DNA of 64,000 nt from Acidobacteriota bacterium (GCA_028876655.1 JAGWRA010000176.1:7850-71849), one strand, 5' to 3'; shown: positions 4,234 through 56,722, counted from the stretch's first letter. Notes: generated from the sequence alone by a model not told the origin. Program-made: numbers and translations.

Positions 4234-4402
4234 GGCGGAGAACCTCCCCCTGTCGTACGAATCCGATGTTCTGAGGCAGCGGCGACGCCCAGGCGCCCTG
4301 CAGGTGGGGTGGCGCCCCCAACCTCGCCGCGCGAATGACGCGGAGGAGTATCGGGGCCCGCCATTACGCCCCGGTATCGCGCGAGGCAAATCGACGGAAA
4401 CC

Positions 4403-13412: not shown

Positions 13413-16400
13413 ATGCCGCCATCAGATCGCTCGCCATCAGCACTTGCACGCCGGTCGTGGTTTGCGCACGCCGCCGGCGGCGACGTCGATCAGGAGGCGG
13501 CGACGATCGTCGATATTCTACGCTGGCGTGCGGCGCATCAGGCTGAAAAGCTGTCGCACCTGTTCCTGGCCGACGGCGAGCGCGACGAGATCCGGATCAC
13601 CTACGCCGGGCTCGATCGACAGGCCCGCGCGATCGCGGCCGACCTGGTGGCGCGCTGCGCGCCCGGCGAGCGGGCGCTGCTGCTCTACCCGCCCGGCCTG
13701 GAGTTCATCGCGGCCTTCTTCGGCTGCCTGTACGCCGGCATCGTCGCGGTGCCCGCCTATCCGCCGCGCAACCGCAGCCACATGCCGCGCATCAGCGCCA
13801 TCCGGGCCGACTCGGGCGCCCGCTTCGCGCTGACGACGGAGAAGACCCTCGCCGGCATCCAGGCGAATCTCGACGCCTATCCGGATCTGGCCGGCCTGCA
13901 GTGGCTGGCGACCGACGAGGTCGACGCGGCCGGGGCGGAGGGCTGGCGTCCCGCGGCGTTGGCGGCCGACGCGCTCGCGTTCCTGCAGTACACCTCGGGA
14001 TCGACCGGCATCCCGAAGGGCGTGATGGTGAGTCACGCCAACATCCTGTACGACTCGCTCTACATCCAGCGCTCGTTCTCGCTGCATCCCGGCAGCGTGT
14101 CGACGTCGTGGCTCCCCAGCTTCCACGACATGGGGCTGATCGACGGCGTCATCCAGCCGCTCTACACCGGCTTCCCCGGCATCCTGCTGTCGCCGGTCAG
14201 CTTCATCCAGAAGCCGGTCCGCTGGCTCGAGGCCGTCTCGCGCTACCGCGGCACGCACTGCGGCAGCCCGAACTTCGGCTACGACCTCTGCACGGAGAAG
14301 ATCACGCCCGAGCAGAAGGCGACGCTCGACCTGCGCTGCTGGGAGAGCGCGTACAACGGCGCCGAACCGGTGCGCAAGGACACGCTGCTGCGCTTCACCG
14401 AGGCGTTCCGCGACACCGGCTTCTCGCTGCGCGCCTTCTATCCGTGCTACGGCATGGCCGAGACGACGCTGATGGTCTCGGGCGGACACGTCACCACCGA
14501 CCCGGTGTTCTGCCGCGTCGACAAGGCGGCGCTCGAGCAGGGGATCGTGCAGGAGTCGAGCGATCCGGCTCCCGATCGCGCCGTCGACCTCGTCGGCTCC
14601 GGCCGCATGATCCTCGGCACGGACGTGCGCATCGTCGACGCCGGAACCGGGCAGCAGTGCCCCGCCGGACGGGTCGGCGAGGTCTGGGTCTCGGCGCCCA
14701 GCGTCTGCATGGGCTACTGGCAGCGCGCCGGGGAGACCGCGGCGACCTTCGAGGCGCGCACGGCCGACACGGGCGAGGGGCCGTTCCTGCGCACGGGCGA
14801 TCTGGGCTTCCTCCGCGACGGCGAGCTGTTCATCACCGGGCGGATCAAGGACCTGATCATCCTGCACGGCCGGAACCTGTATCCGCAGGACATCGAAGCG
14901 ACGGCCGAGCGGGCCCATCCGGCGCTGCGCGCCGGCGGCAACGCGGCGTTCTCGATCGACGAGGACGGCGCGGAGCGGCTCGTGCTGGTGCAGGAGCTCG
15001 AGCGGACGGCGCTCCGCAACCCCGACGTCGAGGCGATTGGCGGCGCCATCGCCCGGGCCGTGGCCGACGAGCACGAGGCGCCGATCCACGAAATCGTCCT
15101 GATCAAGACGAGCACGATCGCCAAGACGTCGAGCGGCAAGATCCAGCGCCGCGCCTGCCGCGCGCGACACCTGAGCGGCGAGCTGGAGGTCGTCGGACGC
15201 TGGCAGGACGAGGCGGTCGCCTCGCAGCCCGCGGCCGATCGCGAGCGCCTGGCGCCGCCGGAGCCCCTGGCGCCGGCCGCCGCGGCCATCGCCGCCTGGC
15301 TCGCGTCGCGGATTGCCGCCGTCACGAAGCGGCCGGTCGAGGGGATCGACGCCGCCGCACCCTTCTCCTCGTTCGGCCTCGACTCGGTCACCCTCGTGGG
15401 GCTGTCGGGCGATCTGTCGGCGTTCGTCGGCCGCGACCTGCCGCCGACGCTCCTCTACGACTTCCCGTCGATCGCGCAACTGAGCCGGACGCTCGCCGGC
15501 GCGGCCGCCACGGCAGCCCCGGGCCCCGCGCGCGGGCCGGCCACGGGACGCGGGCCGATCGCCATCGTCGGCATCGGCTGCCGGCTGCCCGGCGGCGCGC
15601 ATGGCCCCGAGGCGTTCTGGCGGCTGCTGCGCGACGGCGTCGATGCCATTGGCGAGGTGCCGGCCGATCGCTGGGACGCCGCGGCGGTCGAAGCCGCCTC
15701 GGGCGCCGGCGACGCCTGGCGCGTGCGGCTCGGCGGCTTCCTCGACGAGGTGGACCGGTTCGACGCGGAGTTCTTCGGCATCGCGCCGCGCGAGGCCGCC
15801 GGGATGGACCCGCAGCAGCGGCTGCTGCTCGAAACGGCGTGGGAAGCGCTCGAAGATGCCGGGCTGCCGCCCAGCCGCCTGAGCGGGACGCCGACCGGCG
15901 TATTCGTCGGCATCAGCACGCACGACTATCTCGCGCGCCAGCTGCACGGCGGGGACCCGGGCCGTCTCGACGCGTACAGCGGCACCGGCAACGCGTTCAG
16001 CGCGGCGGCCGGCCGGCTGTCCTACGTGCTCGGACTGCAGGGGCCGAGCCTGGCGATCGACACGGCCTGCTCTTCCTCGCTCGTCGCCGTCCACCTGGCG
16101 TGCCGCAGCCTGCAGTCGGGCGAATGCGACCTGGCGCTGGCGGGCGGCGTGAACCTGGTGCTGTCGCCCGAGATGAACGTCGCGTTCTCCCGCGCCGGCA
16201 TGCTCGCCCCCGACGGGCGCTGCAAGACGTTCGATGCCGGCGCCGACGGCTACGTCCGCGCAGAGGGCTGCGGCGTCGTCGTCCTCCGACCGCTGGCCGA
16301 CGCGGTGGCGGCCGGCGATCCGATTCTCGCCGTCGTCGCGGGGACCGCCGTCAACCAGGACGGACGGAGCAACGGCCTGACCGCCCCGAACGGCCCCGCA

Positions 16401-19400
16401 CAGGAGGCGGTGATCCGCCGGGCGATCGACGAGGCCGGCGTCCCTCCCTCGTCGATCGGCTACGTCGAGACGCACGGCACGGGGACACCGCTCGGCGATC
16501 CGATCGAAGTGCGCGCACTCGGCGCCGTGCTGTGCGACGGGCGGACGACGCCGCTCCCCATCGGGTCGGTAAAGACGAACCTGGGCCATCTCGAGGCGGC
16601 GGCCGGGGTCGCGAGCCTGATCAAGGCGGTGCTCGCGCTGCGGCACGCGGCGATCCCGCCGAACCTGCACTTCCGGGCCCCGAACCCGTACATCCCCTGG
16701 GACACGCTCCCCGTGACCGTGCCGACGGCGCTGCTGCCGTGGCCGCGCGGCGGCGACCAGCCGCGGCGCGCGGGCGTCAGCTCGTTCGGCTTCACGGGGA
16801 CCAACGCGCACGTAATCATCGAGGAAGCGCCTGCCGCGCCCGCCGCCACCGTCGTGGAGCGCCCCGTGCAGGTGCTGGCGCTGTCGGCGCGCGACGAGGA
16901 GAGCCTCGCGGCCCTGTCGGACCGCCATGCCGCCTTCCTCCTCGAGGCCGACCGCATGCCGCTCGCGGACGTCTGCTACACGGCGTCGGCCGGCCGCGAT
17001 GCGTTCGCCTGCCGCCGGGCCGTCGTCGGCGCCACGCGCGAGGAACTGGTGGAGGCGCTGGCCCGCCCGGCCACCACCGCGCGCGGCCCGGCCCGCGCGC
17101 CACGCATCGCCTTCCTGTTCACCGGGCAGGGGTCGCAGTACGCGGGCATGGGGCGGCGGCTCTACGAGACCGAGCCGGTGTTCCGCGCGGTCATCGATCG
17201 GTGCGACGACCTGTTGCGCGCCTCCCGGCAGGAATCGCTGCTGGCGGTGCTGTACCCGGCAGAGGGCGAGGCCGGACCGATCGACGAGACGGCCTGGACG
17301 CAGCCCGCGCTCTTCGCCTTCGAGTGCGCGCTGGCCGGACTGTTCCGATCGTGGGGGATCACGCCGGCCGTGGTCATGGGGCACAGCGTCGGCGAGTTCG
17401 CCGCGGCCTGCGTGGCCGGCGTCTTCAGCCTGGAGGACGGCCTGCGCCTGGTCGCCGAGCGCGGACGCCTGATGCAGGCGCTGCCGGCCGGCGGCGGCAT
17501 GCTGGCGGTGTCGGCTGGCGAAGCGGCCGTGCGGCAGGTGCTGGACGGGCGGCGGGATGTCGCGCTGGCCGCCATCAACGCGCCCGACGAGACCGTCCTC
17601 TCCGGATCGGCGGACGCGCTCGACGCGCTGGCCGAGGCGTTCGCGCACCAGGGAGTCCGGACGCAGCGGCTCGTGGTTTCGCACGCCTTCCACTCGCCGC
17701 TCATGGCGCCGATGGTCGACGCGTTCTCGCAGACCCTCGCCGGCACGACGTTCGCGCGGCCGGCGACCGCGCTCGTCTCGAACCTGACGGGACGGCTGGT
17801 CGGCGCGGAGATCGCGTCCCCTGAGTACTGGCGCCGGCACGTGCTCGAGCCGGTGCGTTTCGCCGAGGGGATCGAGACGCTCGAGGCGGAGGGCTGTACC
17901 CACGTCGTCGAGATCGGCCCCAGGCCGACGCTGAGCGCGCTCGGCCTGCGGAGCTGGCGCGGCCCTGCCGCGACCTGGATGCCCGCCGTCCGCCCGCGCG
18001 TCGACGACGCCAGGCAGGCGCTGCAGGTGCTGGCAACGCTCTGGGAAGCGGGGGCGGCGGTCGACTGGACCGGGTTCGCGCGCGGCTTCGGGTACCGGCG
18101 GACGGCCGGCCTGCCGACCTATCCGTTCCGGCGCGAGCGCCACTGGATCGACGAGTCGCCCGCGGCGTCGCCCCACGGGGCGCTGGCGGGCGGCCTCCGT
18201 CATCCCCTGCTCGGCCGATCGCTGCCGGACGTCGCGGCCCTGCCGGGTGCGCGGCTGTGGCAGCGGGACGCCGGCGATCCGCCGCCCGGCGCCTGGGCGG
18301 CGTACCGCGTCGACGGCACGAGCGCGCTGCCGGCCGCCGCGTACGTGGAGCTGGCGATGGCGGCGGGGCATGAGCTGCTCGGCGAGGAGGCCGGCGGCCT
18401 CGCGCAGTTCGAGATCCTGGGCGCGCAGCACGTGACGGCTGGCGGGACCGCCCTGCAGACGATCGCGCGGCCGCTCGGTCCCGACGAGGCTCTCTGCGAG
18501 ATCTACGCGCAGCCCGCGGATGGCGCGGCGTGGCGGCTGACGGCCAGCGCGCGCCTGACGCGCCGGGCGGCGCCGGCCGCCGTCTCTTCCCCCGTCCCGC
18601 CGGCACGGCGGCCGATCGACCTCGGCATCATGTTCTTCAACGGCAGCGAGGATCTCGATCGCCGCCGGCAGTACCGCCTCGTCATCGAGGCGGCCCGGTT
18701 CGCCGACCGCCACGGCTTCTCGAGCGTGTGGGTCCCCGAGCGGCACTACACGGCGTTCGGCGGGCTCTATCCGAATCCGTCGGTGCTGCAGGCGGCGCTC
18801 GCGCGCGAGACGCGCCGGCTGCGGCTGATGGCCGGCAGCCTGGTGCTGCCGCTGCACCATCCGCTGCGGGCCGCCGAGGACTGGGCGCTCGTCGACAACC
18901 TGTCGGGCGGCCGGGTCGGCCTGTCGATCGCGTCGGGCTGGAACCCGGATGACTTCGCGATGGCGCCCGAGCGGTACGCCGATCGTCACGAGACCGTGTT
19001 CCGCGGCCTCGACCTGCTGCGCCAGCTGTGGCGCGGCGAGCTGGTGGACGCGCAGAGCGGGTCCGGGCGTTCGATCCGGATCCGCACCTACCCCACGCCG
19101 ATCCAGCCCGAGCTGCCGGTCTGGGTGACGGCCGCCGGCAATCCGCGGACGTTCGCGCGGGCCGGCGAGGCGGGCGCCCACCTGCTGACGCACCTGCTCG
19201 ACCAGGACGTCGAGGCGCTCGCCGGCAAGATCGCCGTCTACCGCGACGCGCGGGCGCGGGCGGGCCACGATCCGGCGGCCGGCCGCGTGACGGTGATGCT
19301 GCACACGTTCCTCGGCGAGGACGTCGAGACGGTGCGCGAGCAGGTGCGGCAGCCGTACTGCGAGTACATCAAGGCCAACATCGGGCTGTTGAAGGGGCTG

Positions 19401-22116
19401 GCGTACAGCCGCGGCAGCGACATCGACCTCGCGGCGCTGTCGCCGCAGGACCTCGACGAGTTCGTCGGCTTCCTCTACGACCGCTTCTTCGCGACGCGCG
19501 CGCTGCTCGGCACGCCGGAATCGTGCGTCGATCTGGTGCACGCCCTGCACGGCGCCGGCGTCGACGAGCTCGCCTGCCTGATCGACTTCGGGCCGCCCAC
19601 CGACCTGGTCCTCGAGAGCCTGCCGCACCTCGCCCGGCTGCGCGACCGCGTCAGCGGCGGACCGGCATGCGTGGCGCTCGCGCGGCCGGCCGAGCCGGTC
19701 AGCCGGATCCAGACACGGTGCGATCAGACGATGCCCGGCCCGGTCTTCTACCGCCGGCTGCACGATCGCGGGATCGCCTTCGGCGACGAGCTGCAGCGCG
19801 TCGACCGGTTCTGGCGCCGTGACGGCGAGGCCCTGGCCCGGCTGCGCGACGACCGGCCGGCCGGCACGACGGCCACGCTCGACGCCGCGCTGCAGGCGTT
19901 CGTGGCGGCGTTGCCCGCCGGCGCCTTCACCCGCGCGAGCGACGGCGTCTACGTCGCGACCAGCGCCGATCGCGTGGCGTTCGGCGAGGCCGCCGGACCG
20001 GCGGCCTGGAGCCACGCGACGATCACGCGCGGCAGCCTGGGCGACGACGAGATCTTCGCGGGCGACGTGACGCTGCTCGATCCTCACGAGGCCGTGGTCG
20101 CGCGCATCAGCGGCTTCCAGGTGCGCCGCGTCCGGCCGTCGGCCGCCGCGCGCCTCGCGGATGGAGGCGACCGCCTCGAGTCGTGGCTCTACAGCGTGCG
20201 CTGGCAGGCGGCCCCTCGCCACCCGGGCACGCCGGTCGCGGATGCCGCGCCGGGCCGCTGGCTGCTGCTCACCGACGAGGGTGGCGTCGGCGCCGCCCTG
20301 GCGGATCGGTTGCGCGTGACGGGCGACGACGTCGTCGAGGTGCACGCGGCCGGCGGAATCCCGATCGCGGCGGACGCCGCGGATCCCCTGTCGCCGGCGA
20401 CCTTCGATCGCCTCGTCCAGCGCGTCACAGCCGGATCGGGCCGCCTGAAGGGGGTGGTGCATCTGTGGAGCCTCGATGCGCCGCCGTCGTCCGGGCTGAC
20501 GCTCGACGCGCTGTCGGCCGCCGAGGCGTGCGGCTGCGGCGCGGCCGTCCACCTGGTGCAGGCCATGGTCCGGGCTGGCCTCGAGAGCCGGCTGTGGATC
20601 GTGACGCGTCAGGCGCAGGCGGCCGGCGACGACGCCGCGGATTGCGCGGTGGCGCAGGCGCCGATCTGGGGGCTCGGACGCGTCATCGCCGCCGAGCACC
20701 CCGATCTCTGGGGCGGCCAGCTCGATCTGCCGGCTGCCGGGACGAGCGCACCCGCCGACGCGATGGCGTGGCTCGTCGACGAGCTCACGCGGCCGGACGG
20801 CGAGGATCAGGTCGCGCTGCGGCACGGGGAGCGCCGGGTGGCGCGCCTGCTGCGGGCTCCGGCGCCCGAGCCGGACGCGGTGCGGTTCGAACCGGAGCAG
20901 CTCTACCTCATCACCGGCGGGCTCGGTGGCATCGGCCGGCGGATCGCCGGATGGATGGTGAGGCACGGCGCGACCGACCTGCTGCTGACGGGCCTGCACG
21001 ACCTGCCGGCCGGCGACGAGACGGCCGGCGCCGCCGCGCTTCCGGCCGACGTGCGCGAGCGGCTGGCGGTCATCCAGAGCCTGGAGGCGCAGGGGGCGCG
21101 CGTCCGGTACGTGCGCGCCGATGCCAGCGATCCGGCCGAGATGGCGGCGGTCGACGCGGCCATCGCCGCCGCGGATCGGCCGCTCGGCGGCATCATCCAC
21201 CTGGCGGGCGTGCCCGAGACGCGGACGATCGTCGAGCTCGACTTCGCGCGCGACCGGCGCGTGATGGCGCCGAAGGTGCGCGGCGCGTGGATCGTCCACG
21301 AGCTCTCGCGGCGCTGGCAGGCGGGCTTCCTGGTGGCCTTCTCGTCAATCTCGGCGGTGTGGGGATCGCGCGGTCAGCCGCTGTACGCCGCCGCGAATCA
21401 CTTCCTCGACGCGCTGACGGCGCACCGGCGGAGTCTCGGCCTGCGGACGCTGACGGTGAACTGGGGGCCGTGGGCCGAAGGCGGCATGGTGTCGGCCGAC
21501 GACCTGCAGCTGCTGGCGCGCATGGGGCTGCGGTCGATCGAGCCGGTCGACGGCACGGCCGCGCTCGGCCGCCTGCTGGCCTCCGGCCGATCGCAGCAGG
21601 TCGTGGCCAGCGTGGACTGGCCGCTCTTCCGCGACTTGTTCGAGTCGCGCGGTCCGCGGCCGCTGCTCGCGCAGGTCGAGACGCAGGACGCCGGAACGGG
21701 ACACGCGGCGGCCGTCACCGAGCTGGCGCGCGCCCTGGCGGCGGTCGCGGCGGACGAGCGCCTCCGGAGGCTCGTCGCGCACCTGCAGCAGCAGGTGGCC
21801 GCGGTGCTGGCGCTGCCGGGCGGCCGGCTGCCGGATCCGCGCACGGGGTTCTTCGAGATGGGCATGGACTCGCTGATGGCGCTGGATCTGAAGAAGCGGC
21901 TGCAGGCCGATTTCGGTCTGGAGCTGCGCGCCACGGTGGTCTTCAACTATCCGACCGTGCAGGCGCTGGCCGGCTTCCTGTCGGATCTCCTCGCCGCGCC
22001 GGCCTCGCCGCCGGCGCCCGCCGCACCGGCCGCGGTCGATCCCGAGTCGCTGTCGGAAGCCGAACTGGTGCGCCTGCTGGACGAGCAGCTCGAAGCGATC
22101 GATACGCCGGGGGAAC

Positions 22117-22124
<8 letters not shown>
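13413..22124 (+). CDS. Hybrid loading/PKS megasynthase: FAAL-ACP-KS-AT-DH(N half)-LLM-DH(C half)-KR-ACP
   Basis: 2903 aa. FAAL ([24 protein letters not shown], fatty-acyl-AMP-ligase-like N-terminus). ACP (FGLDSVT). KS ([51 protein letters not shown]). AT ([28 protein letters not shown], which indicates a malonyl-type AT). DH-like halves and an LLM insert are listed as separate features. KR ([21 protein letters not shown], no LDD motif). ACP ([12 protein letters not shown]). The stop overlaps the next start by 8 nt. Confidence 0.95.
18201..18570 (+). other. DH-like N-terminal hot-dog half (PKS module 1)
   Basis: Begins '[23 protein letters not shown]..', a variant of the HxxxGxxxxP motif, and runs about 120 aa to an Ala/Pro-rich linker. 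Confidence 0.45.
18615..19640 (+). other. Embedded luciferase-like monooxygenase (LLM; MupA/Atu3671-type natural-product LLM) domain, module 1
   Basis: Sequence reads '[114 protein letters not shown]...[26 protein letters not shown]...[21 protein letters not shown]'. This is the conserved pattern of FMN-dependent LLM domains found in NRPS/PKS proteins. Confidence 0.85.
19731..20135 (+). other. DH-like C-terminal hot-dog half (PKS module 1)
   Basis: '[17 protein letters not shown]' is a degenerate GxxYGPxF motif. 'LDAALQAF' matches the DxxxQ/H motif. The segment ends '..ISGFQVRRV' before the KR structural subdomain. Confidence 0.45.
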
Positions 22125-28029
<5,905 letters not shown>

Positions 28030-28037
28030 GTTCGCCG

Positions 28038-31000
28038 ATGACCAGGCACGATCAGACCACCGGCGACGAGGCCCGGGCCCGCGAGGCGTTGTTCGAGCTC
28101 CTGTTGCGCGAGCGTGGCTTCGGCACGGACGGTCCCGCGGGCATCCGGCCGCGCGGCGGCACCGGTCCGGCGCCGCTGTCGTTCGCGCAGCAGCGCCTGT
28201 GGTTCCTCGACCAGCTCGAACCCGGGAACGCCGTGTACAACGTGCCGGGCGTGCTCCGCCTCACGGGCGCGCTCGACGCCGCGGCGCTCGGCCGCGCGCT
28301 GAACCGGATCGTCGCGCGGCACGAGGTCCTGCGCGTGCGGTGCGCGGAGGCCGACGGCCAGCCGTCGCAGGTTCCGCTCGACCTCGTCCTGACCCTGGCC
28401 GAAGAGGATCTGTCGAGCCTGGCGCCCGCGGTGCGCGAGGCGCGCATCCGCGAACGGGCCGCGGCCGAGGCCGACCGCCCGTTCGATCTGGCGCGCCCGC
28501 CCTACCTGCGGGCCACCCTGCTCCGTCTCGGCCCCGCCGATCACCTGCTGCTGTTCACGATGCACCACATCGTCAGCGACCAGTGGTCGCTCGGCATCCT
28601 CGCCGGCGAGCTGGCGGCGTTCTACGAGGAGGAAACGGGCGGCACGGCAGCGGCGCTGCCGGCGCTGGACCTCCAGTACACCGATTACGCCGCCTGGCAG
28701 CAGGAGTGGCGCACGAGCGCGGCCTTCGCCCAGCAGCTCGCCTGGTGGCGCAATCGCCTCCAGGGGTTGACGCCGCTGGAACTGCCGGCCGACCATCCGC
28801 GTCCGGCGGAGGCGTCGTTCCGCGGCGCCTCCCGGCACTTCACGATCGACGCCGCGCGCCGTGCGGCCGTCGAGCGGCTCGGCCAGACCGCCGACGCAAC
28901 GCCGTTCATGACGCTGCTCGCGGCGTTCCAGGTGCTGCTCTACCGGCTGACGCGCCAGGGCGACGTGGCGATCGGCACGCCGGTGGCGAACCGGTCGCAG
29001 GCCCAGCTGCAGCATCTCATCGGCTTCTTCACCAACACGCTCGTGATGCGGGCGTCGGTGGACGGTCACGCGTCGTTCCGCCGGCAGCTCGCCGAGGTCC
29101 GGCGCACCTGCCTCGACGCCTACGCGAACCAGGAGCTGCCGTTCGAGGCGCTGGTCGAGGCGCTCCAGCCGCGCCGCGAGCTGAACCGCCATCCGCTGTT
29201 CGACGTCCTCTTCGTCCTGCAGGCGCCGCTGCCGTCGCTTCGCATGCCCGGGGTAGAGGCCCGCTTCGTCGAGCAGGACACGACCACGTCGAAGTTCGAT
29301 CTGACGCTGACGCTGCGCGAGTCGGCGGCCGGCTGGGAGGGCTGGGTCGAGTACCGCACCGATCTCTTCGAAGCGGCGACCATCAACGGCTTCATCGATC
29401 GCTTCGCGCGGCTGCTCGACGCGGTCGTCGCGGCGCCCGACGCGGCCATCGACGACCTGCCGCTGATGTCGGCGGACGAGCGGCAGCGGGTGCTGGCGGG
29501 CTTCAACGACACGGCGGAGGCGTTCGACGGCGACGGCCTCGTGCACGGACTCTTCGAGCGGCAGGTCGAGCGGACACCGGACGCCGTCGCCCTGGTCTGC
29601 GGCGAGCAGCGGCTGACCTACGCCGCGCTGAATGCGCGCGCCAACCGGCTAGCGCACCTCCTGCAGGCCGCCGGTGTGCGGCCGGACGTGCCGGTCGGCA
29701 TCTGCCTCGACCGGTCGGTCGAGACGATCGTCTCCGTGCTCGCCGTGCTGAAGGCCGGCGGCGCCTACCTGCCGCTCGATCCCGGCTATCCGGTCGACCG
29801 GCTCGCCTTCATGCTGCGGGACGCCGGCGCGCGTCTGCTGCTCGTCCATCGCGCGACGCGCGGCCTGCTGCCGCCCGACCCGGACGTCCGCGTCCTCGAC
29901 CTCGACGAACTGGCCGCCGATCTCGCAGGCCGCCCGGCGGAGAACCCGTCGAGCCCCGTGACGCGCCATCACCTGCTGTACTTCATGTACACGTCGGGAT
30001 CGACTGGCCGTCCGAAGGGGGCGACGCTCAGCCATCACGCCCTGCACAACCTGATCCGCTGGCACCTGGCGACGCTGCTGAACGGGGCCGCCACGCTGCA
30101 GTTCGCGCCGCTCAGCTTCGACGCGAGCTTCCACGAGATCTTCGCGGCGCTCGGAAGCGGCGGGGCGCTGCACCTGATCGCGGAGACCGAGCGCCTCGAC
30201 CTCGACGCGCTGGCCGGGCACCTGCAGGCGGCACGCATCGCCAAGGTCATCCTGCCGGTGGTCGTCTTCCAGCAGCTCGCCGCGGCGTACCGGGATCGTC
30301 CGGCCCCGTTCGCCGCGCTGCGGGAGATCATGGTCACCGGCGAGCAGCTGCTCCTGACGCCGGCCATCCTGGACTTCTGCCGGCAGCTGCCGCACTGCCG
30401 GCTCCACAACCACTACGGGCCGTCCGAAGCGCACGTGGTGACCAGCTATACCTACGACGAGCCGCCGGCCGCGCTGCTGCCGCCGCCCCCGATCGGCCGG
30501 CCCATCGCCAATACGCAGATCTACCTGCTCGACGACCGGCTGAACCCGGTGCCCGTCGGGATCACCGCCGAGCTGTACATCGGCGGCGCCAACCTCGCGC
30601 GCGACTACCACCATCGGCCTGACCTCACGGCGGAGCGATTCGTGCCCGATCCGTTCGCTGCGGCACCGGGCGCGAGGCTGTACCGGACGGGCGACCTCGC
30701 GCGATGGCTGCCCGACGGCAACATCGAGTACCTCGGGCGCCGCGATCAACAGGTGAAGATCCGCGGCTTCCGCGTGGAGCCGGGCGAGGTCGAGACGCTG
30801 ATCGGCGAGCACCCCGACGTGGCCCAGGCCGCGGTCGTGGTGCGCGAGGTCGTGCCCGGCGAGAAGAGCCTGGTCGCCTTCATCGTCTGGGCCGAGGGCC
30901 GGCGCGGCACGTGGGAGGCGCTGCGCGATTTCGTCGCCTCACGGCTGCCGGCCTATCTCGTGCCGTCGTTCTTCGTGGAACTGCCGGCGCTGCCGCTGAC

Positions 31001-31406
31001 GCCGAGCGGCAAGATCGAGCGCCGATCGCTGCCGGCACCGTCGGCCCGCGACCTGCGCGCCGAATTCGTCGAGCCCCGCACGGCGACGGCACGCTGGCTC
31101 GCGTCCGTGTGGGCGGAGCTGCTGGGCGTCGAACGGGTCGGGGTCCGGGACAACTTCTTCGAGCTCGGGGGGCACTCGCTGCTGACCACGCGCCTCGTCT
31201 CGCGCGTCCGTCAATCGCTGCAGATCGACGTGCCGCTGCGGCTGGCCTTCGAGCAGCCGACCATCGAGGGCTTCGCGCACGGCCTCGCCGCCCGCTGCGG
31301 CGGCGCCGGCGTGCTGGACACGATCGTCGAGACGTTCCAGCAGGTCGAGACCCTGTCCGACGAACAGGCCAGCGCGCTGCTGTCGGACCTGCAGGAGCCG
31401 CAGTAG
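28038..31406 (+). CDS. NRPS module C-A-T (unassigned A-domain specificity)
   Basis: The track ORF 27381..31406 is over-extended into the upstream PKS. The in-frame ATG at 28038 sits 8 nt after the PKS stop and gives 1122 aa. C domain (LSFAQQRLWFLDQLEPGNAVYNVP, 'HHIVSDQ'). A domain ([70 protein letters not shown]). PCP ([12 protein letters not shown]). Code extracted by eye is DAHIMTHVVK. Confidence 0.95.
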   Translation: MTRHDQTTGDEARAREALFELLLRERGFGTDGPAGIRPRGGTGPAPLSFAQQRLWFLDQLEPGNAVYNVPGVLRLTGALDAAALGRALNRIVARHEVLRVRCAEADGQPSQVPLDLVLTLAEEDLSSLAPAVREARIRERAAAEADRPFDLARPPYLRATLLRLGPADHLLLFTMHHIVSDQWSLGILAGELAAFYEEETGGTAAALPALDLQYTDYAAWQQEWRTSAAFAQQLAWWRNRLQGLTPLELPADHPRPAEASFRGASRHFTIDAARRAAVERLGQTADATPFMTLLAAFQVLLYRLTRQGDVAIGTPVANRSQAQLQHLIGFFTNTLVMRASVDGHASFRRQLAEVRRTCLDAYANQELPFEALVEALQPRRELNRHPLFDVLFVLQAPLPSLRMPGVEARFVEQDTTTSKFDLTLTLRESAAGWEGWVEYRTDLFEAATINGFIDRFARLLDAVVAAPDAAIDDLPLMSADERQRVLAGFNDTAEAFDGDGLVHGLFERQVERTPDAVALVCGEQRLTYAALNARANRLAHLLQAAGVRPDVPVGICLDRSVETIVSVLAVLKAGGAYLPLDPGYPVDRLAFMLRDAGARLLLVHRATRGLLPPDPDVRVLDLDELAADLAGRPAENPSSPVTRHHLLYFMYTSGSTGRPKGATLSHHALHNLIRWHLATLLNGAATLQFAPLSFDASFHEIFAALGSGGALHLIAETERLDLDALAGHLQAARIAKVILPVVVFQQLAAAYRDRPAPFAALREIMVTGEQLLLTPAILDFCRQLPHCRLHNHYGPSEAHVVTSYTYDEPPAALLPPPPIGRPIANTQIYLLDDRLNPVPVGITAELYIGGANLARDYHHRPDLTAERFVPDPFAAAPGARLYRTGDLARWLPDGNIEYLGRRDQQVKIRGFRVEPGEVETLIGEHPDVAQAAVVVREVVPGEKSLVAFIVWAEGRRGTWEALRDFVASRLPAYLVPSFFVELPALPLTPSGKIERRSLPAPSARDLRAEFVEPRTATARWLASVWAELLGVERVGVRDNFFELGGHSLLTTRLVSRVRQSLQIDVPLRLAFEQPTIEGFAHGLAARCGGAGVLDTIVETFQQVETLSDEQASALLSDLQEPQ

Positions 31407-31411
31407 ACGCG

Positions 31412-34400
31412 ATGCCCCCGCGTCCCCCAGTCGATCGGCAGGCCCTCCTCGCGCGACTGCTCGCGCAGAAGGGGATCCGTGTCGGCGGTCCCGGCGTCAT
31501 CCCGCGCCGTCCGCCCGGCACCCCACCCGTCCTGTCCTTCGCCCAGCAGCGCCTCTGGTTCGTCCAGCACCTCGAACCGGCGAGCACGGCGTATCACCTG
31601 ACCCAGGCGATCCGCCTGCGCGGGCCGCTGCAGGTCGACGTCCTCGACCGCGCGATGGCGACGATTGCCGCGCGGCACGATGCCCTGCGCATGGCGTTCC
31701 CGGAACGCGACGGCCACGGGACCGTGGTCGTCGAGCCGGCACGATCGTCCGTGCTGGAAGTCGTCGACCTCGCAGACGTGCCGGCCGACGGGCGCGACGC
31801 CGAGATCGCCCGCCTCACGCACGACACCTTCGAGCGGCCGTTCGATCTGGCGGTACCACCGCTCTGGCGGGCTCGCCTGATCGGACTCGGCGATGTCGAT
31901 CGCCTGCTGCTGCTCTGCGCGCACCACATCGCCCTCGACGGCTGGTCGCTCGGGCTGTTCATGCGCGAGCTGACGGCGCTGTACGCCGCCTACGCGGCAG
32001 GGCGGCCGTCGCCGCTGCCCGACCTGTCGATCGACTACGCCGACTACGCGGCGTGGCAGCGCGCGCGCGCCGGACAGGGGGCCTGGCAGGACGACCTGGC
32101 CTGGTGGGCCGCACGGCTCGCCGACGTGCCGGCGCTCGAACTGCCCTCCGATCGGCCACGCCAGCCGACCACGTCCGCGGCGGGCGCCATCCGTCGCTTC
32201 CTGCTGCCGGCCGATCTCGTCGGCGCGGTCCGCGAACTCGCCCGCCAGGAGGACGCCACGCCGTTCATGGTGCTGATGGCGGGCTTCCAGGTGCTGCTGC
32301 AGCGCCAGACCGGCCAGACGGACTTCGCGGTCGGGACGCCGAGCGCCAACCGGGAGCGGCCCGAGATCGAACAGGCGATCGGCCTGTTCGCCAACATGCT
32401 GGCGCTGCGGGCCGATGTCAGCGGCACGCCGACCTTCCGCGACCTGATCCGCCGCACGCGCCGGACGGCCGCCGAGGCGTACGCCCATCAGGAGCCGCCG
32501 TTCGAGCGGATCGTCGAGCGCGTGCAGCCCGAACGGACGCCGGGCCGGCATCCGATCTTCCAGGTCGCGCTGACGCTGCAGAACACGCCGCCCGCGCGCT
32601 GGGAGATTCCCGGCGTCGCGCTCGACGTCCTGCCACCGGAGGTGCATGGCGCGAAGTTCGACCTGACCGTGGCGCTCGACGAGCAGGACGGCGGTCTCGC
32701 CGGCACCGCCGAGTACCGCACGGCGCTCTTCGACGCCGGCACGATCGATCGGCTGATGGAGCGGTTCGCAATCGTCCTGCGTGCCGCCACCACCGAACCG
32801 GATCGCCCGGTGACCGACCTGCCGGTCCTCACCGCGGCCGAGCAGGCGCAGTTGCGGATGCCATCACGCACCGCGGCGGCGCCCGTGGATCTCCGATCGC
32901 TGCACGAGCGATTCACGGCACAGGCGCGCCGGACCCCGGATGCGGTCGCGCTCACCTGTGGCGACCAGGCGATCGCGTACGGCGCGCTGGATGCGCGCGC
33001 GGACCGGCTCGCCGCGCGGCTCGCCGCCGCCGGCGTGCGCGCCGAGACGCGTGTGCCGCGGTTCCTCGATCGCACGCCATCGATGATCGTCGCCATCCTG
33101 GCCGTGCTGAAGGCCGGCGGCGCCTACGTGCCGATCGATCCGGCCTATCCGGCCGACCGCATCGCGTTCGTCCTTGCCGACTGCGGTGCCAGCCTCCTCC
33201 TCACCGAGCGCCCCCTGAAGGACCGCCTGCCGGACACGCCAGTCGCCGTGCACTGCCTGGAAGACTGGATGGACGAGCCGGCCGGGCCGGCGGCCGGCCG
33301 TCCGTTCCAGCCGATCGCCGTCGCACCCGCGCAGGCCGCCTACGTGATCTACACCTCGGGCTCCACCGGCCAGCCCAAGGGCGTCGTCGTGTCGCATGCG
33401 AACGCCGGCCGGCTCTTCGACGCCACCCGCTCCTGGTTCGACTTCGGCCCGGACGATGTCTGGACGCTGTTCCATTCGTACGCGTTCGACTTCTCGGTGT
33501 GGGAGATCTGGGGCGCCCTGCTCTTCGGCGGCCGTCTCGTCGTCGTCCCGTACTGGGTGAGCCGCTCGGTCGACCAGTTCTATCAGCTCCTCGCCGACGA
33601 AGGGGTGACGGTGCTGAACCAGACGCCGTCGGCCTTCGCGCAGCTCGTGAGCTACGAAGGATCGCTGCCGGCCCCGGCCGATCTCCGGCTGCGCTTCGTC
33701 GTCTTCGGCGGCGAGGCGCTGGAGTTGCAGGCGCTCGCGCCCTGGTTCGCGCGGCATGGCGACGAGCGGCCGCGCCTCGTGAACATGTACGGCATCACGG
33801 AGACGACCGTCCACGTGACGTACCGTCCGATCACCGCCGCCGACGTCGCGGCGGGCGCGGGGAGCGTGATCGGCGAGCCGATCCCGGACCTGCACATCGT
33901 GCTGCTGGATGCCCGCCTGAACCCGGTGCCGGCCGGCGCGACCGGCGAGATCTTCGTCGGCGGCGCCGGCGTGGCCCGCGGCTATCTCGGCCGCCCCGGC
34001 CTCACGGCCGAGCGCTTCGTCCCCGATCCGTTCGGCCCGCCGGGCGCGGTGCTGTACCGGTCGGGGGACCTCGCGCGCCGGCGGTCGGATGGCGACCTCG
34101 AGTACCTGGGGCGCGCGGACCACCAGGTGAAGATCCGGGGCTTCCGGATCGAGCTCGGCGAGATCGAGTCCACGCTCGCGCGCCATCCAGCCGTCGCCCA
34201 GGCCGTCGTCGTCAGCCGTCGTGACGGCGCCGGCGATCGGCTGGCCGCCTACGTCGTGCCGCGCGGGACGGAGCGGCCGTCGGCGAGCGCGCTGCGCGAC
34301 TTCCTGCTGGCCTCGCTCCCCGACTACATGGCGCCGGCCGCCTTCGTCACGCTCGACGCGCTGCCGTTGACGCCGCACGGCAAGGTGGATCGCCGCGCGC

Positions 34401-37400
34401 TCCCCGCGCCGGACCTCTCCGCCACATCCGCCGCCGGCGACGAACCACCGGCGACCGCCGTGGAGCGCGACCTGGCCGACGCCTGGGCGGAGGGGCTCGG
34501 CGTGCCCCGCGTCGGCGCGACGGACAACTTCTTCGCCCTCGGCGGCGACTCGATCCTGAGCATCAGGGTCCGGTCGCTCGCGCGCGCACGCGGCTACGAC
34601 TTCGCGCTCGCCGATCTCTTCCAGCATCAGACCGTCCGTGAACTCGCGCGCATCGTCCGTCCCACCGAGGACGCCGTGGGGGCTGACGGCAGAGACGCCC
34701 GCCCGTTCGCGCTGATCCCGGAGGCCGATCGCGCGGCGCTGCCGGCCGATGTCGAAGACGGCTGGCCCGTCGCGGCGCTGCAGGCCGGCATGCTCTTCCA
34801 CGCCGAGCTCGACCCGCTGTCGGCGGCGTATCACGACATCTTCAGCTTCCACCTGCGCGCGGCCTGGAGCGAGACGGCGTTGATCGAGGCGGTCGCCGGC
34901 GTCATGGCCCGTCACGCCATGCTGCGGACGTCGCTGCACAAGGGGGGCTTCAGCGAACCGCTGCAGCTGGTGCACCGGCACGTGCAGGCTCCGATGACGG
35001 TCGAGGATCTGCGCGACCTGCCCGCGGCCGATCAGGAGGAGCGCATCGCGGCCTGGATGGCCGCCGAACGCCAGCGGCGGTTCGACTGGTCCATCGCGCC
35101 GCTGCTGCGGCTGCGCGTCCACCGGCGGACCGACGAGACGTTCCAGTTCTCGCTGACGGTGCATCACGCGATTCTCGACGGGTGGAGCCTGTCGTCGCTG
35201 CTGACCGAGCTGTTCGGCCGCTATCTGGACGGGCTGGCCGGACGTCCGCCGGCGCCACTGGACCCGCCGGCCGGGTCGTTCCGCGACTTCGTCGCCCTCG
35301 AGCGCGCGGCCGTGGCCGATCCGGCCGCGCAGCGGTTCTGGGAGGAGCGGCTGGCCGGCGCGCAGGCGCCCGCTCTGCCGGCCCGGCGCGAGCCGCGGCC
35401 GGCCGACAACCCGCGCCATACGACGCTGGGGCGGCTCGCCTGGGACCGGCCGGTCGTCGATCGGCTGCAGGCGATCGCCGCAAGCAGCAGCACGTCGCTC
35501 AAGGGCACCCTGCTCGCCGTGCACCTGCACGTCCTTGCGGCACTCGCCGCGCAGACGGATCTGGTGACCGGCCTCATCAGCAACGGCCGGCCCGAGGAGG
35601 CAGGGGCCGACGAGGTGCTCGGCCTGTTCCTGAACACCGTGCCGCTGCGGGTGTGCGTGGCCGGCGGATCGTGGCGCACGCTGATCGAGGCCGCCTTCGC
35701 GGCCGAGCGCGAGCTGCTGCCCTGGCGTCGCTATCCGCTCGCGCAGATGCAGCGCTGGTGGGGACGCCGGGAGCTGATCGAGACCGCGTTCAACTTCGTG
35801 CACTTCCACGTCTTCGCGCCGCTCGTCGGGCGCGACGACTTCCGGCTCCTCGAGACCCGCTATCACGAGGAGACCAACTTCAAGCTCTTCGCGCAGTTCG
35901 CGATCGACCCGGCCACGGGCGGGCTGACCCTGGGGATCACCTACGACCTCGGGACGTTCTCGGAGGAACAGGCGGCGGAGATCACCGGGTACTACCAGCG
36001 CGCGCTCGACGCGCTCGTGGCCGATCCTGACGGACGTCAGGAGGCCCTCGAATTGCTGTCCGCGGCCGAAGCCACGCGCCTGCTCGACACGTTCAACCGG
36101 ACGACGCTGGCGCACGACACGGACCGCTGCCTCCACGAGTTGTTCGAGGCCGCCGCGTCGCGCACGCCCGACGCGACGGCGATCATCGATGGTCATCGGC
36201 GGCTGTCGTACCGCGAGTTGAACCGCCAGGCGAACCGCTGGGCCCGCGCGCTGCGCCGGCGCGGCGCCGGGCCCGACGTCCGCGTGGGCGTCAGTCTCGA
36301 TCGCTCGGCGGACCTGGTGACCGTCCTGCTGGCGATCCTGAAGGCGGGCGGCGCGTACGTCCCGCTCGATCCCGCCTACCCGGCGGCACGGCTCGCCGGC
36401 ATGGCGGCCGACGCCGCCCCGGCGTTCGTGGTGACGAGCCGGACGCAGCAGGGTCGCGTGCAGAAGGCCGGCATTCCCGCGCTGCCGATCGAGGAACTCG
36501 CGGCGCTGCCCCCCTCGGACGAGGACGCGGCAGACGTGGCCGCAGGGGTCTCGCCCGGCAACGTGGCGTACCTCATCTACACGTCGGGGTCGACCGGCCG
36601 TCCGAAAGCCGCGGCCATCCAGCACCGGAACGCCGTGACGCTCGCCGACTGGGCCGCGGCAGCGTTCCCTGCCCCGGCGTTCGCGGGCGTCCTGGCGTCG
36701 ACGTCGATCAGCTTCGACCTCTCCGTCTTCGAGATCTTCGTCACGCTGGCGCGCGGCGGCACGATTGTGCTGGCGGCCGACGCGCTCGCCCTGCCGGCCC
36801 TGCCGGCCGCCGGCGACGTGACGATGATCAACACCGTGCCGTCGGCGATCGCGGAACTGCTGCGCCAGCGCGCGATCCCCTCGTCGGTCCGGACGGTCCT
36901 GCTCGCGGGCGAGCCGCTGCCGGCCAGCCTCGTCGATGCGCTGTACGCCCTCGGCCACGTCACGGACGTGTACGACCTGTACGGCCCGTCCGAGGACACG
37001 ACGTACTCGACGTTCGGCCGCCGCGAACCAGGCGGCCTCGAGACGATCGGGCGGCCCGTCGCCAACACGCGCGTCTACCTGCTCGACGACTGGCTGCGGC
37101 TCGCGCCGCTCGGCAGTCCCGGCGTGATCTACATCGGCGGCGAGGGGGTCGCGCGGGGCTACTGGAATCGCTCCGATCTGACCGCCGAGCGCTTCCTGCC
37201 CGATCCGTTCGCGCCGGCGCCCGGCGCGCGCATGTACTGCACGGGCGATCTCGCACGGTTCACGGCCGACGGCCGGCTGATCTTCCTGGGCCGGGTCGAC
37301 CAGCAGGTGAAGGTCCGCGGCTTCCGGATCGAGCCGGGCGAGATCGTCGCGGCCCTGGAACGACAGGATGCGGTGGCCGAGGCTGCCGTCATCGCCCGCG

Positions 37401-39334: not shown

Positions 39335-39337
39335 ACG

Positions 39338-42300
39338 ATGGCGAAGAACCTCGAAGACGTCTACGCGCTGTCGCCGCTGCAGGAGGGGCTGCTGTTCCAC
39401 AGCCTCTACGATCCGCGGTCGTCCGCCTACTTCGATCAGCTCATCGTCGCCATCCAGGGGACGCTCGACGAGGATGCCTTCGCGCGCGCCTGGCAGGCGC
39501 TCGTCGATCGCCATCCCGCGCTGCGGACCGCCTTCGCGTGGCGCAGCGGCAAGCGTCCGCTGCAGGTCGTCGCGCGGACGGCGCGGCTGGACGTCATCCG
39601 GCACGACTGGCGCGGCGAGCCGGACGCGCTGGCGCCGGCACGCCTCGAGGCGTTCCTCGAGGAGGACCGCCGCCGCGGCTTCGAACTGTCGCGCCCGCCG
39701 CTCTGCCGGCTCGCCATCATCCGCCGCGCCGAGGCCGAACGGGTCATCGTCTGGAGCCGGCACCACCTGCTGCTCGACGGCTGGAGCGTGTCGCTGCTGC
39801 TGCGCGAGCTGCTCGAGCGGTACGGCGCCCTCACCGGCGGCGCGCCGGCGCCCGAACGGCCGGCCCCGCCGTATCGCGACTTCATCGACTGGCTGCAGCG
39901 GCAGGATCGATCGGCCGCCGAGGCGTTCTGGCGGCGGACGCTGGACGGGTTCACGACGCCGACGCCCCTCGGGCTCACGCGCGCCACCGGAGAACGCCGA
40001 GCCGATCCTGCCGCGGCTGATGTCGAGCGGATCGACCGCCTGCCGGCCGGCCAGACCGAGGCCATCGTCGCGGGCGCGCGCCGCGCGCGGGTCACGCTGA
40101 ACACGCTCGTGCAGGGGGCCTGGGCGCTGCTGCTCGGCCGCCTGAGCGGCGAGACCGACGTGCTGTTCGGCGAGACCGTCGCCGGCCGGCCCGCCGACCT
40201 GCCGGGCGCCGACGCGATGATCGGGCTGTTCATCAACACGCTGCCGGTGCGCGTGCCGCTGCCGGCGGCGGTCACGGCCGGCGACTGGCTCCGGTCGCTC
40301 CAGGACGCCGGCACCGACGCGCGCCGCTACGACTATTGCCCGCTGGTGGACGTGCACGGGTGGAGCGAGGTGCCGCGCCAGACGCCGCTCTTCGACAGCC
40401 TCGTCGTGTTCGAGAACTACCCGGCGAGCACGCGCGAAGCGGTCATGCCGGGATTCACGATCGGGTCCGCCGAGACGTGGGAGCGGACGAACTATCCGCT
40501 GACGCTGATCGTGTCGCCGGGCACGCAGCTGGAGCTGCGCTGGATCTTCGACGCCGGGCGGTTCGACGAGACGGCCATGGTGCGATGGATGGAGGCGTTC
40601 CGCACCATCCTGGACCAGCTGGCTGCGCGGCTCGACGCTCCGCTCGCCCGCATCTCGCCGCTCGACGATGCCGAGCGGCGGATGCTGCTGCACGACTGGA
40701 ACGCCACGGCGCTCGCATTCGACCGGCAGGTCTGCCTGCATCAGCTGGTCGAGGCACAGGCGGCCGCGACACCCGAACGGACGGCCATCGTCCATCGCGG
40801 CGCACGCGTCAGCTACGCGGCCCTGAACGAGCGGGCGGACGCGATCGCGCGAGGCCTTGCGGCCCTGGGCGCCGGTCCCGAGGTCCCGGTCGGGCTGTGC
40901 GCCCGCCGGACACCGGCGCTCCTGGCGGGCATGCTCGGCATCCTGAAGACGGGGGCGGCGTACGTGCCGCTCGATCCGGCGTATCCGGCCGAACGGCTGT
41001 CCTTCATGGTGCGCGACGCCGGCATCCGGCTGCTCGTCACCGAGCGGGCGCTCGCGGGTCGATTCGACGAGGTGACGCCGGTGCTGCTCGACGCGGACGC
41101 GGAACCGGCTGCGCCTCCCGTGCGACGTTCGCCGGATGTCACGCCGGAGAACCTGGCCTACGTCATCTACACGTCGGGGTCGACCGGACTGCCGAAGGGG
41201 ACGGCCATCACCCACCGCAGCGCCGTGGCGCTCGTGGCGTGGGCCCGTCACGTGTTCAGTGACGGCGAACTGGCCGGCGTGCTGGCCTCCACGTCGGTCT
41301 GCTTCGATCTGTCCGTCTTCGAGGTCTTCCTGACGCTCGCCGCCGGCGGCACCGTCGTGCTCGCCGAGCATGCGCTGGAACTGCCGTCGCTCGGCGCCGC
41401 AGGATCGGTCACGCTCATCAATACCGTGCCGTCCGCGATCGCGGAGCTCGAGCGGCAGCAGGCCATTCCCGCGTCGGTCCGGACGATCTGCCTGGCCGGC
41501 GAGCCGCTGACGGCCGCGCTCGCCGATCGCCTCTACGCGCTTCCCGGCGTGGAGCGGGTCTACGACCTCTACGGTCCCTCCGAGGACACGACCTATTCGA
41601 CCTTCACGCAGCGGGCGCCGGGCGGACCGGCCACCATCGGCCGGCCGATTGCCAACACGCAGCTCTATCTCGTGGATGGCCACCTCGAGCCGGTGCCGGC
41701 AGGCGTCATCGGCGAGATCGTCCTGGGCGGCGACGGACTGGCGCGCGGCTACCTCGGACGCCCGGCACTGACCGCCGAGCGGTTCGTGCCCGATCGCTTC
41801 AGCGGACGGGCCGGCGCGCGCCTCTATCGCACGGGCGATCTCGGGCGGTTCCGCCCCGACGGACGGCTGGAGTTCCTCGGCCGCGCCGATCATCAGGTGA
41901 AGATCAGGGGCTTCCGGATCGAGCCCGGCGAGATCCAGGCGCGGCTCGAGGAGCATCCCGGCGTCGCGGACGCTGCGGTCGTCGTCCGCCGCGACGAGCG
42001 GGGCGACCCGCACCTGGCGGCGTACTACACCTCCTCGGACGCCACGGCCGCCGCCCCGGGCGCGCTGCGCGACTACCTGGCGCAGCGCCTGCCGGCCTAC
42101 ATGGTTCCCGACGCCTTCTGCCGGCTCGACGCCCTGCCGCGCACGCCCAACGGCAAGCTCGATCGCGCGGCCCTGCCCGATCCCTCCGGCAGCCGCCCCG
42201 CGTCGGCCGTCGCTCCGCGCACGCCGACCGAGCGGCAGCTCGTCGACCTCTGGCAGCAGGTGCTGGGCCTCGACACGGTCGGCGTCACCGACAACTTCTT

Positions 42301-47092: not shown

Positions 47093-47107
47093 ACCGTCAC
47101 CGGACTC

Positions 47108-53100: not shown

Positions 53101-53551
53101 GGGCGCATTCGTCCTTCTCGACGCCCTGCCGCTGACCGCCAGCGGGAAGGTGGATCGCCAGTCGCTGCCGGCGCCGGAGGGCGCGGCGGTCGTCGCGGGC
53201 GCTGGCCGTACGGCCCCGCGCTCAGCGGTCGAGTCGCTGGTGGCCGCGTTGTGGGCCGAGCTGCTGCATCGCGAGGCGCTGGCCGTAGAGGACAACTTCT
53301 TCGAGCTGGGTGGCCACTCGCTGCTGGCCACGCAGATGCTGGCCCGCGTGAAGGACATCATGCAGACGCCGCTGCCGATGCTCAGCATCTTCGAGGCGCC
53401 GACGGTCGGCGGCTTCGCGCAGCTCATCGACGCGGCCGCCGCGTCGCCCGGACGGGCCGAGGAGATCGCACGGGCGTGGCTGACGCTGCGCCGCCTCTCG
53501 CCGGACGAGCGGGCGCGGCTGCTGGCACGGGAACACGGGGACGCGGTGTGA
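47108..53551 (+). CDS. NRPS, two modules: C(DCL-type)-A(Leu)-T-C-A(Ser)-T; no release domain
   Basis: 2147 aa. N-terminus '[19 protein letters not shown]'; [10 protein letters not shown]1 code by eye is DAWFLGNVVK (canonical Leu). T ([12 protein letters not shown]). C2 ([23 protein letters not shown]). A2 code is DVWHFSLVDK (Ser). T ([14 protein letters not shown]). The protein ends with a ~45-aa tail '..[20 protein letters not shown]' and carries no TE or R domain. Confidence 0.95.
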
Positions 53552-56710: not shown

Positions 56711-56722
56711 GATGGGATCCTG

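Follow-up and report, generated by a model that had tools for sequence, protein, structure and literature searches.

In MtaG and MelG, the luciferase-like monooxygenase (LLM) domain termed MOX is inserted in the adenylation (A) domain of a nonribosomal peptide synthetase (NRPS), where glycine alpha-hydroxylation leads to a terminal amide. The LLMs MupA (mupirocin), OocM and CalD belong to the family TIGR04020, and MupA-type enzymes carry out the on-line alpha-hydroxylation of a beta-keto thioester bound to an acyl carrier protein (ACP), using reduced flavin mononucleotide (FMNH2) from a separate reductase (PMC10952193). In the puwainaphycin synthetase, the LLM of PuwE is the proposed source of the 2-hydroxy group on the lipopeptide fatty acid (PMC4219810). 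Here, we describe another TIGR04020 LLM, for which the chemistry of MupA is proposed and which is placed by sequence comparison between the two halves of a polyketide synthase (PKS) dehydratase (DH). The domain belongs to the protein PKS1, encoded in a 64,000-nucleotide stretch of high GC content (67-75%) from an Acidobacteriota bacterium (GCA_028876655.1, JAGWRA010000176.1:7850-71849). The whole stretch is called the window, and coordinates without another locus name are counted from its first nucleotide.

Location of the LLM domain in PKS1

PKS1 starts with a fatty acyl-AMP ligase domain (FAAL) and a loading ACP, followed by a ketosynthase (KS), an acyltransferase (AT), the segment of interest, a ketoreductase (KR) and a second ACP. 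The open reading frame (ORF) and the elements of the segment are:

13413..22124, plus strand: PKS1 ORF, 2903 amino acids (aa), FAAL-ACP-KS-AT-DH_N-LLM-DH_C-KR-ACP
18201..18563, plus strand: DH N-terminal hot-dog half (DH_N), residues 1597-1717; His1597 of the HPLLG motif is codon 18201-18203
18564..18623, plus strand: Ala/Pro-rich linker of about 20 aa, the site where 24 of 31 related units have a polypeptide break
18624..19643, plus strand: complete FMN-dependent LLM of the MupA/Atu3671 family, residues 1738-2077; PERH motif from residue 1775
19689..20144, plus strand: DH C-terminal hot-dog half (DH_C), residues 2093-2244; Asp2157 of LDAALQ is codon 19881-19883

The initial annotation of the window had located the segment at 18201-20135 (residues 1597-2241), which is right to within 3 residues, and the motifs that it quoted (the start of the N-terminal half, GIAFGDEL, LDAALQ and the Ala/Pro linker) were each found in the translated PKS1. 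The order DH_N, linker, LLM, DH_C between the AT (residues 1234-1548) and the KR (residues 2498-2689) was recovered with Pfam and TIGR04020 matches.

Both flanks scored above the curated cut-offs of DH profiles, as the annotation had anticipated: PKS_DH_N (PF21089) matched residues 1597-1699 (E 3.3e-10, 40.3 bits for a cut-off of 27) and the C-terminal hot-dog profile PS-DH (PF14765) matched residues 2093-2244 (E 4.2e-25, 88.7 bits for a cut-off of 23.7). Between them, Bac_luciferase (PF00296) matched residues 1742-2052 (Pfam, E 7e-53), and the NCBIfam model TIGR04020 scored 495.1 bits (cut-off 244.45) over positions 2-341 of 341, in agreement with the complete LLM of about 340 aa that had been predicted.

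The flanks were also aligned by sequence search of the PDB. The N-terminal flank corresponds to residues 29-151 of the PpsC DH, from the catalytic HPLLG onwards (E 1e-7), and the C-terminal flank to residues 149-303 of the CurJ DH (E 4e-10), with the window LDAALQ (DxxxQ) falling on the catalytic LVDSCFQ of CurJ. Because of these ranges, the flanks add up to a single dehydratase of the usual length, interrupted at the linker that connects its hot-dog halves; about 375 residues (linker, LLM, linker) part the halves in PKS1. The DH motifs are partly degenerate, as noted at the outset: the N-half motif reads HPLLGRSLP, with the His in place and the Pro one position early relative to HxxxGxxxxP (family consensus HPLLGxxLP), and YGPxF is replaced by AFGDEL. 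The catalytic His1597 and the DxxxQ Asp2157 are both kept.

The presence of DH_N and DH_C together in each of the 31 flanked units described below argues for one unit, and an artefact of chance or annotation was dismissed on the strength of the PDB alignments, the curated cut-offs and these 31 independent units. Profiles, PDB alignments and flank co-occurrence thus agree with the placement originally proposed: at the level of sequence, the LLM is spliced at the inter-hot-dog linker of a PKS DH. The domain order and the family membership of the LLM are likewise shown.

For structural comparison, the LLM was modelled with AlphaFold2 (AF2), which gave a predicted local distance difference test (pLDDT) score >90 across the domain. 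Foldseek comparison with the PuwE OX domain (PDB 6KET; 47% sequence identity, E 5e-120) gave a TM score of 0.93, and comparison with 1LUC gave 0.83, consistent with the luciferase TIM-barrel fold. The 62-sequence family alignment has 45 invariant columns, which the PKS1 LLM shares by construction, being one of the 62. When 19 fused homologs were used as the alignment, AF2 returned hot-dog strands and a central helix in each flank (pLDDT 73-89 for DH_N and about 80-90 for DH_C). Foldseek of the whole AF2 model returned matches to the LLM alone and none on the DH halves.

Many members of the LLM superfamily are F420-dependent oxidoreductases, and weak matches to those families were seen, so the PKS1 domain might in principle be such a reductase or an inactive relic, leaving the architecture chemically without consequence. 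We consider this highly improbable. The TIGR04020 score is twice its cut-off and each F420 family stays far under its own, on which ground an F420-dependent reductase was rejected. In addition, the LLM is 91% identical to that of the nearest relative of the window, against 56% for DH_N and 67% for DH_C, which indicates strong purifying selection, and it has the identity to the solved OX domain 6KET given above.

The remaining domains of PKS1 are:

13527..15191, plus strand: fatty acyl-AMP ligase loading domain and loading ACP (AMP-binding residues 39-436, DIP2-like C-terminal subdomain 480-593)
15555..16673, plus strand: KS, residues 715-1087, with Cys, His and His all present
17112..18056, plus strand: AT, residues 1234-1548, GHSVG and HAFH motifs
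20904..21479, plus strand: KR catalytic subdomain, residues 2498-2689, GGLGGIG motif and YAAAN Tyr
21783..21980, plus strand: module ACP, residues 2791-2856

The loading carrier domain, at about residues 622-693 with the GLDS Ser at 658, is the first of two PP-binding stretches; the Pfam coordinates listed for PKS1 cover only the second. The catalytic residues of the KS and KR are all present. The HAFH motif of the AT predicts malonyl-CoA as the extender, so that the alpha carbon would be a CH2.

Distribution of fused and split forms

A one-genome-per-species scan gave >584 LLM relatives, from which 77 loci were kept; the survey set comprised 95 LLM domains from 83 sources (82 fetched loci and the window). 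Flanks were detected with hidden Markov models built from the flanks, with query-occupied columns only. The initial annotation had suggested a database search for KS-AT-DH_N-LLM-DH_C-KR-ACP, and the survey returned 31 LLMs (of the 95) with DH_N upstream and DH_C downstream. No LLM with a single flank was seen among the 95, save two at cut locus ends. Flanked units were found in Acidobacteriota, Cyanobacteria, Ktedonobacteria, Burkholderia, Streptomyces, Myxococcota and Bacteroidota, and at least 20 of the 31 serve as first extension module immediately behind a FAAL.

The fused form is present in seven units: the window, four other Acidobacteriota, one Bradyrhizobium and one metagenome contig. 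In the other 24, DH_N and the LLM are on separate ORFs and the break lies exactly between them. Searches with the DH_N-LLM-DH_C segment revealed a very large family of proteins of about 1100 aa that open at the LLM and continue with DH_C-KR-ACP, including examples from Burkholderia, Acidobacterium capsulatum and Streptomyces. Among 1.84 billion representative proteins, 2009 matched below 1e-30, and about 17 of the top 150 matches hold all three parts in one chain. The nearest relative of the window, a Vicinamibacterales genome, is 75% identical over the segment and 91% identical in the LLM, and has the same two-LLM layout.

In Burkholderia contaminans and A. capsulatum, the gene directly upstream of the LLM gene encodes FAAL-ACP-KS-...-PKS_DH_N and stops just past DH_N (E 3e-21 for the DH_N of the Burkholderia protein), with a 4-nt gene overlap at the DH_N/LLM junction. 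In most lineages, the upstream protein stops 2-28 residues past DH_N (49 in one locus) and the downstream protein opens at about LLM residue 3, in the first strand, which leaves no room for ordinary docking domains.

Variation was also seen in the accompanying domains. A cis AT is present in the window and in most other loci; the OcfJ-like protein (L001 5577-10004) and the A. capsulatum protein (L004 4057-8004) have the KS, the KS-AT linker and DH_N without an AT domain, and for these modules loading in trans or by a different AT is required. Among the cyanobacterial downstream proteins P0037, P0040, P0062, P0072 and P0074, some carry a methyltransferase (MT) in place of the KR (LLM-DH_C-MT-ACP). 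Other cyanobacterial variants have no reductive domain (LLM-DH_C-ACP, e.g. P0057 of Scytonema, with an NRPS after it in L005). The processing domains that accompany the nested LLM therefore vary.

The occidiofungin pathway

The Burkholderia contaminans locus was recognized as the occidiofungin (ocf) cluster by gene order and exact gene sizes (ocfN 720 bp, ocfM 951 bp, ocfK 987 bp, ocfJ 4428 bp and ocfI 3324 bp), compared with the published table, where ocfI is listed as a 'flavin-dependent monooxygenase' and ocfJ as an 'NRP synthetase' (PMC9494966). OcfJ is FAAL-ACP-KS-DH_N and OcfI is LLM-DH_C-KR-ACP: together they have the domain order of the window and form the first extension module of a lipopeptide line. 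The LLM-DH_C region of OcfI is 48-49% identical to that of the window, and the catalytic His and Asp are both kept in OcfJ/OcfI. The systems differ in three respects. The ocf module (B. contaminans, B. ambifaria) consists of two polypeptides with the 4-nt gene overlap exactly between DH_N and LLM, whereas the window has one chain; the OcfJ module lacks an AT, whereas the window module has a cis AT; and OcfJ/OcfI are followed by a KR module and an aminotransferase module, whereas PKS1 is followed by a second LLM-KR module.

The C18 amino acid of occidiofungin carries an amine at C3, H2 at C4, hydroxyl groups at C5 and C6, and O-xylose at C7, according to the nuclear magnetic resonance table (PMC10897925). 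Read by colinearity, the C12 acyl starter would correspond to C7-C18 and the OcfJ/OcfI module would add C5-C6. On the same reading, C6 would be the alpha carbon of this module, hydroxylated, and C7 its beta carbon, reduced and not dehydrated. The C6-OH and C7-O pattern is exactly the output expected from an LLM and a KR with a silent DH.

This pattern bears on the possibility that the nested DH is active and that the LLM acts on its product, either by epoxidation or hydroxylation of the 2-enoyl chain formed by the KR and dehydration, or with dehydration of a dihydroxy chain to an alpha-keto chain. The catalytic His and DxxxQ Asp present in the window speak for this possibility, and the LLM family is reported to include epoxidases and Baeyer-Villiger oxygenases besides hydroxylases (PMC8739492). 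However, the product of the occidiofungin module keeps its alpha-OH and beta-O, with neither a double bond nor a ketone, MupA acts at the beta-keto stage (PMC10952193), and in the window YGPxF is degenerate and the spacing of HxxxGxxxxP is altered. An active dehydratase with the LLM acting on its product is thus judged very unlikely.

Corramycin, myxoglucamide and puwainaphycin were considered as candidate matching products and were rejected, as their Ox domains lie in other contexts. The initial annotation knew of no characterised DH-split insertion. This stands as far as domain descriptions are concerned: no domain-level account of ocfI/ocfJ was found in the open-access literature, and no description of a DH-nested LLM was found there either, an absence that is not proof. 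It does not stand for the architecture itself, which sits in a genetically characterised pathway. The packaging of an LLM in a DH fold appears to be undescribed though widespread, and the window appears to be a fused member of a common, unrecognized architecture.

PKS2 and the LLM without flanking halves

The gene following PKS1 encodes a second LLM-containing module:

22117..28029, plus strand: PKS2, 1970 aa, KS-AT-LLM-KR-ACP
24982..25926, plus strand: PKS2 LLM, residues 956-1270, immediately bordered by the post-AT linker on one side and the KR on the other

The PKS1 gene, stop codon included, shares its last 8 nt with the start of PKS2 (22117-22124, ATGGCTGA), which suggests translational coupling of the two genes. 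The LLMs of PKS1 and PKS2 are 63% identical, and profile searches of PKS2 with E values up to 10 gave no signal for hot-dog halves. Loci L006, L017 and L019 likewise have a nested LLM ahead of a bare one. In a neighbour-joining (NJ) tree of the LLMs, the bare domains of PKS2 and its relatives fall within the hot-dog-flanked part, and LLMs of the PuwE-type context fall in the other major part. This position suggests that the bare LLMs arose by secondary loss of the halves, with their function kept.

Two successive PKS modules with a bare LLM in each were observed in loci L015, L023, L031 and L034 from metagenome-assembled genomes of Opitutaceae (Verrucomicrobia), and these LLMs cluster with the PKS2-type LLM of the window in the NJ tree.

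Role of the hot-dog halves

Across the family, mean pairwise identity is 31.5% in DH_N, 58% in the LLM and 32% in DH_C, the halves thus diverging at about double the rate of the domain between them. The divergence of DH_N correlates with that of DH_C (r 0.74) more closely than with that of the LLM (r 0.59). Across the 31 units, the His is retained in 23, the Asp in 26 and both in 21; the YGP motif has mostly disappeared from the family, and HxxxGxxxxP has its Pro displaced or missing. For the halves, we consider a structural or docking function likelier than a catalytic one, and the suggestion in the initial annotation that the DH is a scaffold is plausible.

The retained residues leave room for a catalytic contribution, in which hot-dog and LLM work as partners: the His, with the Asp, would take the alpha proton, its usual task in dehydration, and the enolate would attack the flavin C4a-hydroperoxide, or the DH tunnel would hold a long acyl chain and present its C-alpha to the LLM. 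The window and, in all, 21 of 31 units, OcfJ/OcfI included, retain the pair; the at least 20 units in the first module after a FAAL have a long fatty acyl chain as substrate; and both halves always stand beside this LLM clade, derived sub-clades excepted. Nevertheless, 10 of the 31 units have lost the His and/or the Asp, the PKS2-type LLMs of the same assembly lines have no hot-dog at all, and the halves diverge about twice as fast as the LLM. Moreover, an ACP-bound beta-keto substrate and an FMN reductase are all that MupA requires for hydroxylation (PMC10952193). We regard a working-partner function as unlikely.

For the structural role, a more specific proposal can be made. In the split units, where ordinary docking domains have no room, complementation of the hot-dog halves is the obvious candidate for joining the two proteins. 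The split double hot-dog might then be a new PKS docking device, in which the complementing halves alone hold LLM-DH_C-KR-ACP on the KS-AT core, with the single-chain form in the window as its covalent version. A stronger form of this idea would have the kept His and Asp turn the hot-dog into the enolising half of a composite active site for hydroxylation. This proposal is put forward tentatively, as possible rather than probable.

Proposed biosynthetic sequence

The reading that we consider probable is that residues 1597-2244 of PKS1 are a DH double hot-dog with an alpha-hydroxylating LLM in its linker, the halves being a shell. The two halves would pack into one double hot-dog. By analogy with MupA, the most likely chemistry is alpha-hydroxylation of the beta-ketoacyl-ACP followed by KR reduction, without dehydration. 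The on-line alpha-hydroxylation predicted by the initial annotation is supported, likewise by analogy, by MupA family membership and by the C6-OH/C7-O pattern of occidiofungin.

The proposed sequence is as follows. PKS1 would act as the first extension module after FAAL loading, and its KS and AT (malonyl) would make the beta-ketoacyl-ACP. The LLM would hydroxylate the alpha carbon with O2 and with FMNH2 from a free flavin reductase, and the KR would reduce the beta-ketone to give a 2,3-dihydroxyacyl-ACP, with no dehydration. The hot-dog halves would be a retained shell by which the LLM is held at the usual DH place beside the KS-AT core and, in most relatives, where the chain is cut between DH_N and LLM, would also link two polypeptides. 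PKS2 would repeat hydroxylation and reduction with its shell-less LLM, and a 2,3,4,5-tetrahydroxy fatty acyl chain would be taken over by NRPSs.

Inferred in this scheme are the reaction and the point at which it occurs, the silence of the DH and the physical joining of the halves, and several observations count against the scheme. Both catalytic residues are kept in the window DH and in two thirds of the units, which is more than a purely vestigial domain predicts. With the 62 mostly LLM-DH_C proteins as the alignment, which is shallow over DH_N, AF2 gave DH_N a pLDDT <50; the second model, from the fused homologs, had a predicted TM (pTM) score of 0.56. The AlphaFold comparison proposed in the initial annotation thus folded each flank with a hot-dog pattern, and one joint double hot-dog remains inferred. 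The assignment of C6-OH to OcfI is a colinearity reading for which no published experiment was found, the NJ tree of the LLMs carries no support values, and no flavin reductase was recognized among the ORFs scanned.

Neighbouring genes

The putative acceptors of the hydroxylated chain are encoded downstream of PKS2:

28038..53551, plus strand: four NRPS genes with 7 A domains (gene starts approximate)

No thioesterase was seen at the end of these plus-strand NRPS genes, so the reductase of a convergent operon (54710-63986, minus strand) may release the chain. This operon encodes a PKS AT-KR-ACP truncated by the end of the window, an NRPS C-A-T whose last domain is the reductase, and a carbamoyltransferase. 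Directly upstream of PKS1, a divergent NRPS module (9752-13204, minus strand) consists of a TubC_N docking domain followed by C-A-T, and may belong to the same assembly line as PKS1.

A gene of the FGE-sulfatase family (PF03781) lies beside both the window cluster (819-1709, plus strand) and the ocf cluster (L001 1-120), possibly by coincidence. Also upstream of the cluster, 1675-4389 and 4470-6761 (both minus strand) encode a TonB-dependent receptor with a CarboxypepD_reg N-terminus and a CHASE-PAS histidine kinase, respectively. TonB-dependent receptors of the CarboxypepD_reg type occur commonly among Acidobacteriota and Bacteroidota, in keeping with a Vicinamibacterales genome as the nearest relative.

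Comparison with known systems

The survey defines a recurring cassette, FAAL-ACP-KS-(AT)-DH_N/LLM-DH_C-KR-ACP, present across several phyla. Its recognition enables genome mining to predict a vicinal 2,3-diol where lipid and peptide meet; it accounts for the C6-OH/C7-O pattern of occidiofungin and mends weak annotations, such as that of ocfJ as 'NRP synthetase'. For the window, an acidobacterial lipopeptide with the tetrahydroxylated fatty acyl chain described above is predicted. Between the DH hot-dog halves, the linker accommodates either 340 inserted aa or a break in the chain, which points to a place where PKSs might be split or given an insertion in engineering, and to possible docking by hot-dog complementation.

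Each described system shares one part of this arrangement. Canonical DHs (CurJ/CurK/CurF, PpsC and GphF DH1) are homologous to both window halves, which retain the catalytic His of HPLLG and Asp of DxxxQ, but the canonical fold is continuous, whereas the window DH is broken at the inter-hot-dog linker. MupA, OocM and CalD are of the same LLM family; unlike the window LLM, they are free-standing, lack hot-dog flanks and act in trans on a KS0-ACP 'hydroxylation bimodule' of trans-AT PKSs. The PuwE OX domain (6KET) is the closest solved structure to the window LLM and is likewise embedded in cis; it follows an aminotransferase, between PKS and NRPS modules and without DH halves, whereas the window LLM lies between DH halves. 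The MOX domains of MtaG and MelG are insertions too, with an A domain as host instead of a DH in a KS-AT-...-KR-ACP module. On-line alpha-hydroxylation by an LLM is therefore known, and what appears to be new is its packaging within a dehydratase fold.

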